Shown in pieces: positions 1,981 to 10,185 of a DNA stretch of 64,000 nt. The notes beneath the pieces are model-generated. The model was not told the origin of the DNA. It did not search any database and saw nothing but the letters and a program-made list of their open reading frames with translations. The number at the start of each line of letters is the position of its first letter. Positions within the stretch are counted from its first letter, which is position 1. Origin of the DNA: Escherichia phage vB_EcoP_PAS59. The DNA lies in the sequence record OQ921332.1; one strand, 5' to 3'. The position numbers were made by a program, and so were the translations under genes.

Positions 1981-2307
1981 ATGAAAATTAAATTAGCTGT
2001 ATGTGCTGCCTTGTTCGCTGTTTCTTCCGTGTCACATGCTGCCGTATTCAACGAGGCCAGTTTAGATGGTCTGCAATGCACCTATCTAATGGAAAACTAC
2101 GACACTGGCAAGAAGTCCAGCAAGGCAATATTGATTGACCTGAACGACTACGACAGCAAGATAGTTGATAGTAAGTCTGCAATGCTGGTCAATCAGACAA
2201 CAGGCAAGCAAATCACCATTGATCACATGATGCGATCTAGCATGACGTTGTTCGATGAGTCGATGAATGAAATAGCATCAGGTAACGGCACTTGCACCAA
2301 TCCGTAA
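1981..2307 (+). CDS. Exported early protein (signal peptide), unknown function
   Basis: MKIKLAVCAALFAVSSVSHA/AV signal peptide; followed by a terminator. Confidence 0.75.
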   Translation: MKIKLAVCAALFAVSSVSHAAVFNEASLDGLQCTYLMENYDTGKKSSKAILIDLNDYDSKIVDSKSAMLVNQTTGKQITIDHMMRSSMTLFDESMNEIASGNGTCTNP

Positions 2308-2327
2308 CTAATCCGTAAGACTCTCTA

Positions 2328-2352
2328 AGCGCCCTTTTGAGGCGCTTTTTTC
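2328..2352 (+). terminator. Rho-independent terminator
   Basis: GCGCC-CTTTTGA-GGCGC followed by TTTTTTC. Confidence 0.8.
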
Positions 2353-2513
2353 ATTTCTAAGGTGATTGCACATCTTGCCCCTGTTTAGCTCGTTAGGATG
2401 CTTCCTATGTGCCTAGATTTCGATTATAGGGCTTGTTTTCTTCCTCCCTTGATGTTATTCGTGTGTGCGTTCCTTTATGCCTAAAAGAAAGTGAAATTAT
2501 TTTAGAAAAAGAC

Positions 2514-2541
2514 TTGCAACGGTTTTAGGATAGTGTATATT
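2514..2541 (+). promoter_or_regulatory. Promoter P0: TTGCAA-16 nt-TATATT
   Basis: Sigma70-like hexamers; also TAGTGTATA (2531-2539), one mismatch from the TAATGTATA 9-mer. Confidence 0.5.
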
Positions 2542-2581
2542 GAATCTTGTCAGGACGTGATGCAGTAAGTTACCTCCTGAT

Positions 2582-2612
2582 AGGCTAGATTCTTAGCCTT
2601 GCTCTTTAATAA
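2582..2612 (+). promoter_or_regulatory. Hairpin (AGGCTA/TAGCCT) followed by boxA-like TGCTCTTTAATAA (2600-2612)
   Basis: 12/13 match to E. coli rrn boxA TGCTCTTTAACAA; hairpin-then-boxA order as in rrn leaders. Confidence 0.6.
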
Positions 2613-2666
2613 TTCGATTAGTGTATCTTGATAAACTCCCAACCATGCCATAATGAGGATTTATCA

Positions 2667-2867
2667 ATGAACGTGTATACCTTCTCAAGCAAAGACACGC
2701 AAATCACTTGCACTAGCATTAACGTTACTAACATGATTATGAGAATAGTCGGTAGTACATTACAGCAGGCAAAAGAGATGGTAGCCGATGCCGATAAAGG
2801 CAAAGCTATTGCGGTGTTATCGCTGGTAAGTACGGATAAAGATTTAACCTTTAAACGTATGAACTAA
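2667..2867 (+). CDS. Hypothetical early protein (66 aa)
   Basis: ORF 2628..2867; ATG 2667 after GAGGA. Confidence 0.55.
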   Translation: MNVYTFSSKDTQITCTSINVTNMIMRIVGSTLQQAKEMVADADKGKAIAVLSLVSTDKDLTFKRMN

Positions 2868-2929
2868 GGTAAGGTTAGCGGCCTTAACGGTCGCTAGTTT
2901 ATCAAGATGCATTAATCGAAAAATAGTTG

Positions 2930-2957
2930 TTGACACATCGAATCATTATGATAAGAT
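2930..2957 (+). promoter_or_regulatory. Promoter P1: TTGACA-16 nt-TAAGAT with extended -10 TG; A-tract upstream
   Basis: TTGACA 2930-2935; TGaTAAGAT 2949-2957. Confidence 0.7.
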
Positions 2958-2989
2958 GTTCACACGGTCAGCGATGACATAAAACATCC

Positions 2990-3022
2990 GGCACTTAGTG
3001 CCCCGCTCTTTAACAATTTATC
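2990..3022 (+). promoter_or_regulatory. Hairpin GGCAC-TTA-GTGCC followed by boxA CGCTCTTTAACAA (3004-3016)
   Basis: 12/13 match to rrn boxA; GCTCTTTAACAATTTATC (3005-3022) matches the E. coli rrn leader as I remember it. Confidence 0.7.
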
Positions 3023-3089
3023 GTCTTGCCCTTTCGCAAAGATTCACGCGAGATAAGGGAAGAGAATAAAAAGAAGACGATAAAAAGAG

Positions 3090-3117
3090 TTGACAAGGTG
3101 AAACGTTCTGATAGAAT
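3090..3117 (+). promoter_or_regulatory. Promoter P2: TTGACA-16 nt-TAGAAT with extended -10 TG
   Basis: TTGACA 3090-3095; TGaTAGAAT 3109-3117; A-tract upstream. Confidence 0.7.
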
Positions 3118-3140
3118 GTTCACTAAGCAGTAAGAAACAC

Positions 3141-3153
3141 CGCTCTTTAAAAA
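3141..3153 (+). promoter_or_regulatory. boxA variant CGCTCTTTAAAAA
   Basis: About 17 nt downstream of the predicted P2 start; 11/13 match to rrn boxA. Confidence 0.5.
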
Positions 3154-3256
3154 TATGAATCAGAAAGTTAAGCGCAACCGCTTACAATCTTGTTAATCCA
3201 ATGCGTGATTAACTGGTCATTCGAAAGAATAGACGAGAAAAAGATTAAAAAAGTGG

Positions 3257-3285
3257 TTGACACGCTAAACAGGATGATTCATAAT
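3257..3285 (+). promoter_or_regulatory. Promoter P3: TTGACA-17 nt-CATAAT
   Basis: TTGACA 3257-3262; CATAAT 3280-3285; A-rich upstream. Confidence 0.65.
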
Positions 3286-3338
3286 GAGCACTCACTAGAC
3301 AACTAGTGAAACGCGAAACCACGGCGAACGGTGGCGGG

Positions 3339-3379
3339 AGGTGAGAAAGCACCTCGATAGATTTACCGCTCTTTAACAA
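3339..3379 (+). promoter_or_regulatory. Hairpin AGGTG-AGAAAG-CACCT followed by boxA CGCTCTTTAACAA (3367-3379)
   Basis: 18-mer CCGCTCTTTAACAATTTA is identical to the copy at 3003-3020. Confidence 0.7.
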
Positions 3380-3439
3380 TTTAAACTTCTTCCTATATCG
3401 GTTGAACATGGCGAGCAATAATAACCATTGCAAGCTATG

Positions 3440-4185
3440 CCAGATAAAACGATGTAAGGCGCTCTAAAATATCAGAGGAAACCGCTTTATAATCCCTTAC
3501 TGGAAACGACACCACTGATAAATGAAGTTATTGAGTACATGCAAGGCTTAAGCTAATCGCCTACGGTTAAAGGGTAGCGGCGGCGGTGCTAGTAAAGTGC
3601 TACAATAATAGACGTTTATCGGGGTAGTCAAGTCCGACGAATTAACGCTCAATAGCGAGCGGCGGGAGGGGGTTAAAGAGTAGCAAATTGCTATTTAACA
3701 ATAAGGTTTAAGCGTGAGTATTTACTAAGTGAGTGTTTTGATACACATCAATAGCGATGTGAGTACATAAACATGTAGTGTAGTAAATCGTGAGAGAGAT
3801 AATCAAACGCCAAAGTATCAGGCGGTCAATGACTCTTTACCATATGCTTTCCCTTAGTAGGCGATAAGCAGGTTTAGAGAGTTGATATAAAAGGGTATCA
3901 CGAAGCGAAAGCAAAGTAGATAGTAATGCCATCGGCTAGAAATTTAGCTAATTAGAGATGGACGCGCTTGCCTTATTGTGATGATTGATCATCGCTGGCA
4001 AATCGGCTTTGTTTATAGCGATTAGTTGAATCCACCAGATGAAACATCACGGCAAGTTAGGCGGCAAGGTTAACTCCTGATAAGACCGCCTGATTTACCA
4101 CTGGTTACTAATGGTTAGTGATTAGTGTTAAGTCATAGTGACTTGAATAGCCCATAGAGGGCGGCGCATAGTGCGTTTATAATTG
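3440..4185 (+). ncRNA. Long untranslated leader or non-coding RNA (~750 nt) downstream of the promoter/boxA array
   Basis: No ORF of 60 aa or more on the + strand; internal repeats (3565-3610 vs 3671-3706); 11-nt long-range complement 3817-3827 / 4084-4094. Confidence 0.45.
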
Positions 4186-4198
4186 AAAGGTGAATATC

Positions 4199-5101
4199 AT
4201 GGCTAAAGTTTTTAATCTGGTTAACGAATCCGGCTTTAATGCACTGGCAAACAACATTCGTAGCAATAACGCGGCGATCAAACAAGATGTTTCTAACTTC
4301 CTGTTAGGGCATTTGCAGCACTTCCGCACCAACGGTAAGAAACTGGATGTATTGCAGGCGGCGGTTGATTTCTTGTTAACTGAACGTTATCGTGACTTAG
4401 ATGTGATTGCGGTTGCCATCTCTTTCTTAACTCCTATCAAATATAACACTGACGGGGCGAACGGTAAGAAGAAATGGATTAATCTGGAAGGTGAAGCGAA
4501 AGCTAAAGAAGATGCTAAACCGGAACAGGTTAAATCTAAAATGGAACAAAACCGCGCCCGCTGGTCGAATTCCTTTGAACGCTTTGCTAAAGGTGAAGAC
4601 GTGCAGGTTGATAACCCAGCATTCTACAAAGGTTGCAATGACAACGTTCCGGTAGCAAACCAGATCAACCAGAAGGTTAACGAAAACTTTAATCAGGATA
4701 TTTATGCACTGGTTGACCGTCTGGCTGCAATCCGTATTGAAGCGGCATTACTAGCAGATGAACGCAATGGCGCATCTTCTGATAACACTATCGCATTGAG
4801 TGAAGAAGTCGGCAAAGTTAAGAAAACTTTCGATTCACTCCTTAAGAAAGTGACCGCATCAACTGTATCTATCAGCGATGACTACCTGATTAATGCCTCG
4901 ACTAAAGAGCTTGAATCTCTGGACTCATACGCTGATGAAATGGAAAAAGCGATCAACGAAATGACTGAAAAATTGTCTAACCTTCGTGGTCGCATCTCAA
5001 ATGCTTCAACTATCAAAGCGAACGAGAAAGCTGCGCAGGAAGAAGAAGAAGTGTTGCGCAAAGCTGCCGAAATCATGGCAGCACGCCAACAAGCTGCATA
5101 A
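4199..5101 (+). CDS. Early protein (300 aa), C-terminal coiled-coil, unknown function
   Basis: ORF 4190..5101; ATG 4199 after AAAGGTGA; strong terminator follows. Confidence 0.8.
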   Translation: MAKVFNLVNESGFNALANNIRSNNAAIKQDVSNFLLGHLQHFRTNGKKLDVLQAAVDFLLTERYRDLDVIAVAISFLTPIKYNTDGANGKKKWINLEGEAKAKEDAKPEQVKSKMEQNRARWSNSFERFAKGEDVQVDNPAFYKGCNDNVPVANQINQKVNENFNQDIYALVDRLAAIRIEAALLADERNGASSDNTIALSEEVGKVKKTFDSLLKKVTASTVSISDDYLINASTKELESLDSYADEMEKAINEMTEKLSNLRGRISNASTIKANEKAAQEEEEVLRKAAEIMAARQQAA

Positions 5102-5119
5102 CCTATAATAAAACACATG

Positions 5120-5154
5120 AGGCGCTATTCGAAAGGGTAGCGCCTTTTTCTTTT
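5120..5154 (+). terminator. Rho-independent terminator
   Basis: GGCGCTA-N10-TAGCGCC followed by TTTTTCTTTT. Confidence 0.8.
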
Positions 5155-6405: not shown

Positions 6406-6430
6406 GACGCTCTTCTTGAGCGTCTTTTGT
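6406..6430 (+). terminator. Rho-independent terminator T1
   Basis: GACGCTC-TTCTT-GAGCGTC followed by TTTTGT. Confidence 0.75.
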
Positions 6431-6432
6431 CT

Positions 6433-6453
6433 GCCGCCTCTGTGCGGCTTTTT
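6433..6453 (+). terminator. Rho-independent terminator T2
   Basis: GCCGC-CTCTGT-GCGGC followed by TTTTT. Confidence 0.75.
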
Positions 6454-6532
6454 GCGTAGCTAGTGATGCCTAAAGGGAACTCCCTTTGTGAATCATTGGC
6501 ATGGTTCAATCCCTATTGGATGGTCATTTGAC

Positions 6533-6558
6533 CGGGCCTTTAACGAGGCCGCTTTTTT
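6533..6558 (+). terminator. Rho-independent terminator T4 (short stem)
   Basis: GGCC-TTTAACGA-GGCC-GC followed by TTTTTT. Confidence 0.55.
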
Positions 6559-6612
6559 AAGAGTCTTTGCGAGGATTTTTAAATGAGTGAGGTCATGTTC
6601 ACTTTTCAGGTC

Positions 6613-6638
6613 GCCCCGTCTTCGGATGGGGCTTTTTT
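6613..6638 (+). terminator. Rho-independent terminator T5
   Basis: GCCCCGTC-TTCG-GATGGGGC followed by TTTTTT. Confidence 0.85.
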
Positions 6639-10109: not shown

Positions 10110-10185
10110 GCACCCTTAGCTCAATGGACAGAGCAGCGACCTTCTAAGTCGTTGGTTACAGGTTCGAATCCTGTAGGGTGCACCA
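10110..10185 (+). tRNA. tRNA-Arg (anticodon UCU), CCA encoded
   Basis: Acceptor stem GCACCCT/AGGGTGC, anticodon stem GCGAC/GTCGT, loop CTTCTAA, T-arm GGTTCGAATCC, 3' ACCA. Confidence 0.9.

Follow-up and report, generated by a model that had tools for sequence, protein, structure and literature searches.

Candidate rrn-type boxA elements at tandem early promoters and a large conserved structured RNA in a phiEco32-like coliphage

Described boxA systems and the early gap of vB_EcoP_PAS59

Antitermination by Nus factors at boxA is usually presented for rRNA, for the lambdoid phages, where it operates with N, and for a few host genes. Complexes of the rrn type act mainly against Rho; boxB is dispensable in rrn and boxC is not needed for antitermination, and the lambda boxA (CGCUCUUA) lacks the rrn-type UUU core that is carried by the phage elements described here. 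In phage T7 a boxA-like sequence, CGCTCTTTAACAAT, lies at 812-825 between promoters A1, A2 and A3 and gene 0.3; it has presumably been noted in the older literature, of which our literature search found no record. boxA shields long untranslated RNAs from Rho in rRNA and in CRISPR arrays (PMC7665894; PMC12360218), and it is also able, as at suhB and hisG, to favor termination by Rho or to repress translation (PMC12360218), a property that counts against the reading favored below.

We have analysed a stretch of 64,000 nucleotides (the window) from Escherichia phage vB_EcoP_PAS59 (OQ921332.1), a phiEco32-like phage (Gordonclarkvirinae) in which a gap of about 1.9 kb without genes is the site of a boxA array. 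Four copies matching GYTCTTTAANA, the published functional gamma-proteobacterial boxA consensus (PMC5725501), lie in the same orientation on the + strand and span less than 770 bp, each with a promoter 17-75 nt upstream as judged from the predicted starts. The features of the region are as follows.

2327..2347, + strand: intrinsic terminator with a 7-bp stem, 5 GC pairs and a T-run; an annotated terminator in SU7 and SU10
2514..2541, + strand: predicted promoter P1 (module 1), TTGCAA-16-TATATT, weak (9/12), in the SU7/NC-B/101114UKE3-like sub-lineage only
2582..2599, + strand: module 1 hairpin, AGGCTAGATTCTTAGCCT, abutting boxA-1
2600..2612, + strand: boxA-1, TGCTCTTTAATAA, predicted single-stranded, 55 nt from the ATG (2667) of a 66-aa ORF
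2667..2867, + strand: 66-aa ORF, SU7_114 homologue, with a GAGGA ribosome-binding site; sub-lineage only
2930..2957, + strand: predicted promoter P2 (module 2), TTGACA-16-TG-n-TAAGAT, extended -10, 10/12, A-rich tract upstream
2990..3002, + strand: module 2 hairpin, GGCACTTAGTGCC, 1-2 nt from boxA-2, the spacing of rrn boxB-boxA
3004..3022, + strand: boxA-2, CGCTCTTTAACAA followed by TTTATC; 18 nt (3005-3022) equal to the rrnB leader of E. coli
3018..3083, + strand: long imperfect hairpin after boxA-2, TTATCGTCTT...AAGACGATAA, its 3' arm overlapping the A-rich tract of P3
3090..3117, + strand: predicted promoter P3 (module 3), TTGACA-16-TG-n-TAGAAT, 11/12
3141..3153, + strand: boxA-3, CGCTCTTTAAAAA, about 17 nt past the predicted start, with no hairpin before it
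3232..3285, + strand: predicted promoter P4 (module 4), TTGACA-17-CATAAT, 11/12, plus an UP-element-like A-tract, AAAAAGATTAAAAAAGTGG
3319..3355, + strand: module 4 leader hairpins, CCACGGCGAACGGTGG (3319-3334) and GAGGTGAGAAAGCACCTC (3338-3355), both stems preserved by compensatory changes
3367..3379, + strand: boxA-4, CGCTCTTTAACAA, equal to the T7 13-mer, with a 16-nt rrnB match
3380..4198, + strand: large structured untranslated RNA, recognised by conservation, covariation and strand bias
3380-3677: RNA domain 1
3678-3696: RNA hairpin
3698-3979: RNA domain 2
3980-4177: RNA 3' hairpin cluster
4185-4195: Shine-Dalgarno (SD) region
4199..5101, + strand: 300-aa early protein, phi32_124 homologue, phrog_13018
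5119..5146, + strand: strong intrinsic terminator at the end of the unit, 12-bp stem, annotated in SU7

The terminator at 2327..2347 closes an upstream early operon (promoter 609, genes 711-2307) whose promoter carries no boxA. The 66-aa ORF (2667..2867) has no family match; the 300-aa ORF would be the first translated from transcripts of the predicted promoters P2-P4. The AlphaFold model of the 300-aa protein is mostly helical (pLDDT 78), and its best Foldseek match in the PDB (E = 0.34) offers no structural counterpart; nor did the protein give a PDB sequence or Pfam match or a convincing PADLOC hit. Identity as an Arr-type ADP-ribosyltransferase (NCBIfam, E = 0.028) is unsupported, given the helical model and the lack of a structural match.

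The organization resembles the E. coli rrn leader in its strong sigma70 promoters, arranged in tandem and each preceded by an A-rich tract, in hairpins placed 0-2 nt or about 11 nt upstream of boxA, in boxA identity over 12-18 nt, and in the long, G-rich, highly structured, untranslated RNA downstream, and by analogy it would need host factors only. It differs in that rrn has one shared leader copy and a spacer copy, whereas the phage has a boxA for each promoter, four in all; in its unrelated flanks, absence of boxC and absence of BLAST similarity to E. coli; and in an RNA without Rfam match that has a protein gene behind it. T7, also a virulent coliphage, is alike in having strong promoters for the host polymerase in tandem at the end of its genome and the identical 13-mer CGCTCTTTAACAA on the transcribed strand, and in needing no N-like protein. 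It has, however, a single boxA for three promoters, located some 100 nt ahead of a coding gene, and no large non-coding RNA.

As in the lambdoid nut sites, the boxA is phage-borne and predicted to serve NusB-NusE. A nut site consists of boxA, a spacer and boxB with a GNRA-like pentaloop, read with an N protein; here the order is reversed, the hairpin preceding boxA, and the loops are AGAAAG, TTA and ATTC. To our knowledge no N-type protein occurs in this phage group, and unlike an N-dependent nut site the signal here would have to work before phage proteins are made. The CRISPR-array boxA of Salmonella and Vibrio (Stringer et al. 2020, PMC7665894) likewise lies outside rrn on a long untranslated transcript; it is a single boxA in a host locus yielding a repeat array, whereas the phage product is a folded multi-domain RNA. 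That RNA is comparable to GOLLD and ROOL (Rfam) in being phage-encoded, multi-domain and several hundred nucleotides long, and differs from them in having no Rfam match, in its occurrence in E. coli/Shigella podophages, and in its predicted expression from an early rrn-like unit.

Identity, significance and conservation of the array

The promoter and 13-mer coordinates and sequences given in the initial annotation all held on recheck, as did the 18-mer CCGCTCTTTAACAATTTA, which is identical at 3003 and 3366, and the hairpin said to precede three of the four 13-mers. The rrn order of hairpin followed by boxA is thus seen at boxA-1, -2 and -4 and not at boxA-3 (3141). The core GCTCTTTAA occurs four times in 64 kb, on the + strand only and in a 770-bp cluster (shuffle mean 1.07), and the four occurrences of GYTCTTTAANA compare with 0.58 expected, a count reached by none of 100 shuffles; no boxA consensus was found in the window beyond 2601-3378. 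The four promoters had been described as strong and near-consensus, which fits P2-P4 (10-11/12), three of the five top-scoring promoter-like sites in the first 10 kb; P1 is weak, its 9/12 being at chance level, and is restricted to a sub-lineage. Taken together, promoter-like sites are no commoner there than expected (19 versus 24.3). Tandem sigma70 promoters have already been reported in the equivalent spacer of phiEco32 and SU10 (PMC4281155). No phage-sigma (gp36, AATGTA) promoter was found on the + strand of the gap in the window, and GC skew is uninformative as to a replication origin because it tracks gene orientation.

Because the E. coli rrnB leader (NC_000913) reads ...gcggcacTGCTCTTTAACAATTTATCAGAC, positions 3005-3022 of the window are an exact 18-nt match, as the initial annotation had supposed, and positions 3368-3383 a 16-nt match. 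Across the modules the element has the general form GCUCUUUAA[A/C/U]AA; all four copies fit the consensus, lie on the transcribed strand and are promoter-proximal with respect to the predicted starts. Leaders 1, 3 and 4 leave the boxA unpaired in their MFE or centroid folds; in leader 2 alternative folds pair part of it, and in the consensus fold of the RNA it is largely unpaired. No boxC, the GU-rich element resembling TGTGTGGG, was found in 2500-4300. As far as can be judged from sequence, the 13-mers are genuine boxA elements of the rrn type. Recent capture of host rrn DNA was rejected, since the likeness to rrn ends 6 nt past boxA and a BLAST search of 2500-4198 against 5,426 E. coli genomes gave no match. 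A candidate fifth boxA at 3690 (GCTATTTAACAA) was rejected, its consensus being broken at C4 and its sequence forming RNA helices.

The initial annotation proposed conservation of the 13-mer in related genomes as a check, and three to five co-oriented boxA copies are present in all 25 relatives examined, with GCTCTTTAA invariant at those sites. The boxA core is invariant in 26 genomes, and its flanks and even its promoters are swapped; the P3 promoter variant, for example, changes between lineages and its boxA stays. Most modules in the relatives have boxA 7-130 nt after a strong promoter, and a few upstream modules have weak predicted promoters only (6-8/12). boxA-4 is the universal copy, GATTTACCGCTCTTTAA being invariant in 26 of 26 genomes; the -10 and A-tract of P4 are likewise kept in 26 of 26, and its -35 reads TTGACG (10/12) in three relatives. 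Support for the module 4 hairpins includes covariation at three of six pairs of the second helix, with four pair types at one position, and pairing of 100% of alignment cells. The hairpin at 3018..3083 is kept in all aligned relatives, with one compensatory pair (G-C to A-U), and folds more stably than any of 200 shuffles (z = -3.8). Contigs from deeper relatives, in which the neighboring protein is 45-67% identical, carry two or three co-oriented boxA copies, the last of them 901-933 nt upstream of the ATG. The early end of the distant relative Salmonella phage 7-11 has no boxA, which counts against the favored reading.

The structured RNA downstream of the array

The reading of the array as mimicry of the rRNA leader stands as regards the rrn-type boxA, and it missed what the array feeds: an untranslated RNA of about 820 nt whose segment, 3380-4198, is more conserved than the flanking genes. 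The RNA is present at full length in 97 of 97 Gordonclarkvirinae records and was found nowhere else. Its consensus fold has 240 base pairs, of which 72 show double (compensatory) changes; shuffles give 33.5 +/- 3.2 such pairs, with 0/500 reaching 72, and sliding leaves 4-10. Pairing holds in 99.3% of alignment cells and falls to 35-47% on sliding. A strand test on 634 G-U cells gave 99.3% pairing on the + strand and 89.1% on the - strand. The longest + strand ORFs in 3380-4198 are 23-47 aa, and none is conserved, so a protein-coding reason for the conserved gap was rejected. The segment is a real structured RNA, and it is non-coding.

Membership in a described RNA family was ruled out by covariance-model searches: with Rfam 15 at gathering thresholds the window yields a tRNA at 10110 only, and permissive searches of 2300-4300 (E up to 5) found nothing meaningful, rRNA families included. 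With 24% G and 17% C the RNA is rich in G; it folds tightly and has no C-rich rut-like stretches. It may serve Rho poorly as a substrate whether or not a boxA is present, which weighs against the favored reading. Long-range helices join alignment columns 102-114 with 391-404 and 425-434 with 702-711, and a helix adjacent to boxA joins columns 83-93 with 925-935. In RNAalifold helix 3 the flank of boxA-4 is joined to the SD, closing the whole RNA; we regard this long-range helix as unproven because all nine of its nine pairs are invariant and there is no covariation.

Possible functions of the unit

On the sequence evidence, the gap before the phi32_124 homologue would work like a phage-borne rrn-like transcription unit. 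We consider it likely, on balance, that host-only Nus antitermination of the rrn type keeps early transcription processive and Rho-resistant across the long untranslated structured RNA. Upon DNA entry, host sigma70 polymerase would fire at the strong promoters P2-P4, and at the weaker P1 in this lineage, all four having A-rich tracts upstream, and would expose an rrn-type boxA within the first 17-75 nt of each transcript, mostly right after a hairpin. NusB-NusE(S10) would bind the boxA and, with NusA, NusG, SuhB and S4, form an N-independent antitermination complex as on host rRNA, which would cross the 0.9-1.25 kb of untranslated folded RNA (3380-4198) fast and without Rho-dependent termination; polymerase would then reach the 300-aa ORF and stop at the intrinsic terminator 5119-5146. 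The sequences show the motifs, where and in which direction they lie, how they are conserved, and how the RNA is structured; Nus binding, Rho resistance and any aid to RNA folding we infer.

Because host factors alone would be used, the unit could act before any phage protein exists, and with one boxA per promoter no transcript would enter the RNA unprotected. The large, untranslated, structured RNA offers the most natural grounds for having a boxA; the operon behind promoter 609, the sole strong early promoter without a boxA, is translated at once and provides an internal control. An untranslated target is no general requirement, since the boxA elements of T7 and Achelous precede ordinary coding genes. 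The initial suggestion that the early transcripts are made terminator-resistant finds no support, strong intrinsic terminators (2327-2347 and 5119-5146) bracketing the unit.

Several other roles have to be weighed. The boxA RNA might sequester NusB, NusE and SuhB from host rrn, so that the host makes less rRNA and assembles fewer ribosomes as part of its shut-off; antitermination of the phage's own transcripts would then be secondary. The replicating genome carries three to five copies behind near-consensus promoters, and a stable, abundant structured RNA with a 5' boxA could be a long-lived sponge; Friedman and colleagues reportedly found in 1990 that boxA RNA, when over-expressed, competes for NusB in the cell. 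We nevertheless think such a decoy improbable, as every boxA is at a transcript 5' end, the geometry required for co-transcriptional loading; a sponge needs neither a boxA per promoter nor a conserved hairpin-boxA order, and T7 has a single copy. Moreover, the phage requires ribosomes, and its own gp79 turns sigma70 transcription off in the middle phase (PMC12276001). Little chance is likewise given to negative control of the kind described for suhB (Baniulyte et al. 2017, PMC5725501), a protein gene whose 5' UTR carries a boxA of the same consensus. A Nus complex on boxA would then repress translation, promote Rho termination of downstream ORFs, or both, tying early dosage to host Nus or growth status; a boxA located in a 5' UTR can block the SD and bring about termination by Rho (PMC5725501; PMC12360218). 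The targets would be the 66-aa ORF for boxA-1 and, for boxA-4, the SD GGUGAAU (4189-4195) through pairing with AUUUACC (3361-3367). Module 1, with 55 nt between boxA and ATG 2667, and the predicted pairing of the boxA flank with the SD (the RNAalifold helix with 9/9 invariant pairs) do resemble suhB. The suhB-type boxA, however, represses from within about 50 nt of the regulated start codon; three of the four copies here (boxA-2, -3 and -4) lie 0.8-1.2 kb from the next ORF (820-1195 nt from ATG 4199), the long-range helix does not covary, and repressors behind the strongest immediate-early promoters seem counter-productive.

It is also conceivable, if quite unlikely, that the complex serves chiefly as a chaperone, tethering the 5' leader to the moving polymerase and helping distant segments of the roughly 830-nt RNA to pair, as for 16S rRNA, with Rho protection a by-product. 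The long-range helices and the composition of the RNA, a weak Rho target, agree with this, as do reports that ascribe a chaperone role to the rrn complex and leader-trailer helix (PMC8632103, PMC10250234). Sequence data cannot separate this role from Rho protection; T7 and other phages have a boxA without a large RNA, and the leader-trailer helix here is unproven. Least probable is that the 13-mer is an RNA structural or processing element or a DNA operator that resembles boxA by chance. The boxA-like GCTATTTAACAA at 3690 is clearly structural, forming the 3' strand of the hairpin 3678-3696 and the start of the helix 3698-3707, and the AAUUUA after boxA-4 is paired within domain 1. Four perfect 11-nt consensus matches against 0.58 expected, rrnB identity over 16-18 nt and independent recruitment in the early regions of T7, Achelous and Stubb speak against coincidence, and a non-palindromic, strand-specific element at variable distances from its promoters is a misfit for an operator.

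Beyond Rho-resistant transcription by host factors, the unit might be a true functional analogue of the rRNA operon, combining Rho evasion with a co-transcriptional chaperone and a leader-trailer helix (3361-3371 with 4185-4195), its RNA a new class of ribo-regulator made abundantly in the first minutes. We regard this as rather unlikely; if true, the RNA might be a decoy for ribosomal or Nus proteins, an anti-defence RNA, or a scaffold for the 300-aa protein.

The array had been put forward as apparently undescribed for this phage group. Our literature search found no report linking phiEco32-type phages with boxA, and Savalia 2008 and Pavlova 2012 might mention boxA or the long leader; the principle has precedents in T7, Achelous and Stubb, and the tandem promoters were known (PMC4281155). 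The principle is thus not new, and what is new is an array with one boxA per promoter that leads into a large structured RNA. Pseudomonas phage Achelous and the T5-like Proteus phage Stubb also carry boxA in tandem arrays; T5 itself has one consensus match, in the first-step-transfer region, which is not significant. Raw promoter-to-boxA matches in IMG/VR, at least 120, were dropped as evidence because the chance expectation is of similar size, and a clustering analysis was used. T7, Achelous and Stubb suggest that a boxA at the first-expressed end of the DNA is a recurrent, little-discussed phage strategy. In the phiEco32-like phages, a virulent group, each early promoter of one unit would have the host-only rrn version built in. 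The subfamily, which has tractable models (phiEco32, SU10 and BASEL Bas86-94), also proves to carry a large non-coding RNA, previously without annotation, that is universally conserved and covaries strongly, giving a handle on two questions, the N-independent role of boxA in lytic phages and the purpose of large structured phage RNAs. Kuraviruses are used in phage-therapy work, and nusB, nusE, suhB and rho alleles could be unrecognised determinants of host range or resistance.

Setting and composition of the boxA array

The window represents the larger part of a phiEco32-like E. coli podophage genome (Gordonclarkvirinae) and runs from close to the early end. The nearest record is that of Phage NC-B, which is 96.9% identical across 2300-4300 and has its terminal repeat just outside the window start. 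The boxA array lies within a gap of ~1.9 kb without annotated genes, with a small early operon on one side and an ORF of ~300 aa on the other, and this gene-free gap before the phi32_124 homologue is present in all relatives inspected.

Features of the early region and beyond
609-2347, small early operon (promoter 609, genes 711-2307, terminator 2327-2347)
2667-2867, + strand, 66-aa ORF starting 55 nt after boxA-1 and preceded by a good ribosome-binding site
3380-4198, + strand, structured RNA of ~820 nt, conserved, untranslated and multi-domain, with 72 co-varying base pairs
3380-3677 and 3698-3979, large closed domains of this RNA, with a hairpin between them and a hairpin cluster at the 3′ end
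4199-5101, + strand, 300-aa early protein (phrog_13018), homologue of phi32_124, start ATG 4199
10110-10182, + strand, tRNA gene (Rfam, 73 bits)

The initial annotation described four strong promoters in this gap (P1-P4, at 2514, 2930, 3090 and 3257), each followed by an rrn-type boxA (boxA-1 to boxA-4, at 2600, 3004, 3141 and 3367), and the promoter hexamers, spacers, 13-mers and duplicated 18-mer are all located where it placed them. The match to the rrn leader that it gave is also borne out with the rrnB leader of E. coli K-12 (gccgctgagaaaaagcgaagcggcacTGCTCTTTAACAATTTATCAGAC) as reference: positions 3005-3022 match exactly over 18 nt and 3368-3383 over 16 nt, with matches of 9-10 nt for the remaining two copies. 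All four copies satisfy the functional consensus GYTCTTTAANA derived by Baniulyte et al. (PMC5725501), which is found four times in the 64 kb where 0.58 are expected (0 of 100 shuffles reach four), and a search of both strands gave no further occurrence. The description of the promoters as strong applies to P2, P3 and P4, which are in the top five sigma70-like sites of the first 10 kb, but not to P1, which is weak (9/12); this 10 kb shows no general enrichment of promoter-like sites. A-rich tracts precede all four promoters (A makes up 44-68% of the 25 nt ahead of the -35, compared with a window average A+T of 58%), the hairpin ahead of boxA is present in copies 1, 2 and 4, and the boxA cores in leaders 1, 3 and 4 are unpaired in predicted folds.

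Two further hairpins were observed. A long imperfect one (3018-3083) directly follows boxA-2, with its 3′ arm overlapping the A-rich tract ahead of P3; it is kept in all relatives aligned, with one compensatory pair, and by analogy with R0.3 of T7, located after that phage's boxA, it may be an RNase III-type processing site. The predicted P4 transcript starts with a 5′-terminal hairpin (3292-3309, + strand; UCACUAG...CUAGUGA), in place of which relatives have a different hairpin, and this may be a 5′-end stabiliser.

Conservation of the array and boxA sites in other phages

A search with the array region hits 97 phage records, every one of them from Gordonclarkvirinae. The 13-mer is kept as GCTCTTTAA[A/C/T]A[A/G] in the 25 relatives examined, at 3-5 co-oriented sites of the gap per genome; the majority lie 7-130 nt after a strong promoter (often 11-12/12), and for a few of the upstream ones only weak promoters are predicted. 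The boxA core is invariant, and upstream hairpins, spacers and entire promoter variants vary by lineage. Module 4 is universal (P4, two hairpins and GATTTACCGCTCTTTAA), with both hairpin stems remaining paired via compensatory changes and helix 2 co-varying at 3 of 6 pairs. Contigs whose homologue of the 300-aa protein is more distant (45-67% identity, genomes of 81-100 kb) likewise have promoters followed by 2-3 co-oriented consensus boxAs, of which the last is 901-933 nt upstream of the ATG. No boxA was found at the early end of the remote relative Salmonella phage 7-11.

In phiEco32 (~1895-1916), SU10, 172-1 and IME267, module 3 has gAATGTAgt immediately before boxA, similar to the promoter consensus of the phage sigma factor gp36 (tAATGTAtA), and this might give middle or late transcripts starting at boxA in these phages; the window has AATGTT at this site. 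We also note that cagatttacCGCTCTTTAAAAC is common to the module-4 anchor and to six unrelated viral IMG/VR contigs (L017, L019, L020, L022, L025 and L027) without Kuravirus context.

Tandem sigma70 promoters in the spacer of phiEco32-type phages are already in the literature (PMC4281155). No mention of boxA was found in the literature searched on these phages, the two primary phiEco32 papers lying outside the search scope, and the only sites of boxA named in a 2025 review of Rho are those of rrn, lambdoid phages, hisG and suhB (PMC12360218). The initial annotation overstated the uniqueness of the array: T7, Achelous and Stubb also carry boxA. In T7, CGCTCTTTAACAAT is at 812-825, between promoter A3 (64 nt upstream) and gene 0.3 (about 100 nt downstream), and its 13-mer is identical to copies 2 and 4 of the window. 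The count from an IMG/VR pattern scan is uninterpretable because the chance expectation is close to the count among the matches listed; at 19 of the 80 IMG/VR loci analysed, however, there are 2-4 co-oriented consensus boxAs in 2 kb, with almost none on the opposite strand. Examples are two unrelated lytic phages: Pseudomonas phage Achelous has three tandem co-oriented consensus boxAs in its early region at 0.8-1.6 kb (797-1567), and the T5-like Proteus phage Stubb has four in the terminal-repeat pre-early region near A2, T5 itself having a single, non-significant consensus match. T7 and these clustered loci suggest that lytic phages recurrently place host-type boxA in early regions transcribed by the host polymerase. 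What is new is that a per-promoter boxA array is combined with a non-coding RNA that is large, strongly co-varying and found throughout the subfamily; both are open to direct tests in model phages.

A structured RNA downstream of the array

Conservation across 3010-4190 is about 70-100% per 20-nt block, against about 40-65% for adjacent coding DNA, and + strand ORFs in the untranslated stretch reach at most 47 aa, their lengths differing between relatives. RNAalifold analysis of the predicted P4 transcript (3292-4201) aligned from 26 genomes (25 distinct) predicts 39 helices with 240 pairs. Standard pairs occupy 99.3% of cells, compared with 35-47% when partners are slid 1-3 columns, and 72 pairs have changes on both sides, compared with 33.5 ± 3.2 in shuffled alignments (0/500) and 4-10 in slid ones; the covariation score is 0.227 versus 0.124 (0/500). 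A strand test on 634 G-U cells favors the + strand (structure 99.3% paired versus 89.1% for the - strand).

The RNA (3380-4198) is full-length in 97 of 97 Gordonclarkvirinae records, nearly all of which leave it unannotated; it matches no Rfam family and is missing from every other phage record as well as from 5,426 E. coli genomes. With a covariance model of one arm (3505-3632), seven additional Kuravirus-like metagenome contigs are detected (E about 1e-40), and two distant contigs give weak matches at concordant positions (E = 0.008 and about 0.1). An invariant long-range complementarity links 3361-3371 with 4185-4195, joining AUUUACC, which adjoins boxA-4 (plus UC inside it), to GGUGAAU (plus GA), the Shine-Dalgarno region of the 300-aa ORF. 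All sequences are identical there, placing this pairing beyond the reach of covariation, but it is suggestive and could be a leader-trailer helix or occlude the Shine-Dalgarno sequence.

A boxA-like sequence within the RNA, GCTATTTAACAA at 3690-3701, is about 99% conserved and differs from boxA at one position, the critical C4. It supplies the 3′ strand of one hairpin and the first part of a 10-bp invariant helix; because it is part of the RNA structure and breaks the consensus, we regard it as structural and not as a further boxA.

Proposed antitermination and the neighbouring genes

boxA RNA recruits NusB-NusE, which with NusA, NusG, SuhB and S4 make up the rrn antitermination complex, and complexes of this type have their chief effect on Rho-dependent termination. 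The initial annotation's core idea of rrn-type boxA in mimicry of the rRNA leader is sound, but it left the RNA downstream of the array out of account and overstated the effect on intrinsic terminators; general terminator resistance is unsupported because of this bias toward Rho, and strong intrinsic terminators flank the units. The most economical reading of the sequence is that a host-only (N-independent) boxA complex would let sigma70 transcription cross 0.9-1.25 kb of untranslated RNA to reach the first ORF. As an internal control, the strong promoter at 609 lacks boxA and drives an operon that is translated at once, which supports this reading. The rrn complex protects untranslated transcripts against Rho (PMC12360218), the same boxA device is in use at CRISPR arrays (PMC7665894), and the rrn complex is also reported to aid RNA folding (PMC8632103, PMC10250234). 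A caveat to the anti-Rho reading is that the structured RNA is G-rich, and no rut-like C-rich stretches were found in it; no boxC was found near the array, and boxA can also act negatively, for example at suhB (PMC12360218).

The 66-aa ORF is confined to an SU7/NC-B-like sub-lineage and matches no family. The 300-aa protein has a faint NCBIfam match to rifampin ADP-ribosyltransferase (E = 0.028), but the predicted structure consists largely of helices, among them a long C-terminal one, and a search with it found no structural match, so that an Arr-like identity is unsupported. Many records, and PHROGs (phrog_13168), call the 108-aa early ORF at 1981-2307 (+ strand) a ‘terminase’, which its size and position make implausible, and the label is probably a propagated mis-annotation. 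Four terminator-like hairpins are clustered in about 230 nt (6406-6632, + strand) 3′ of the early genes.
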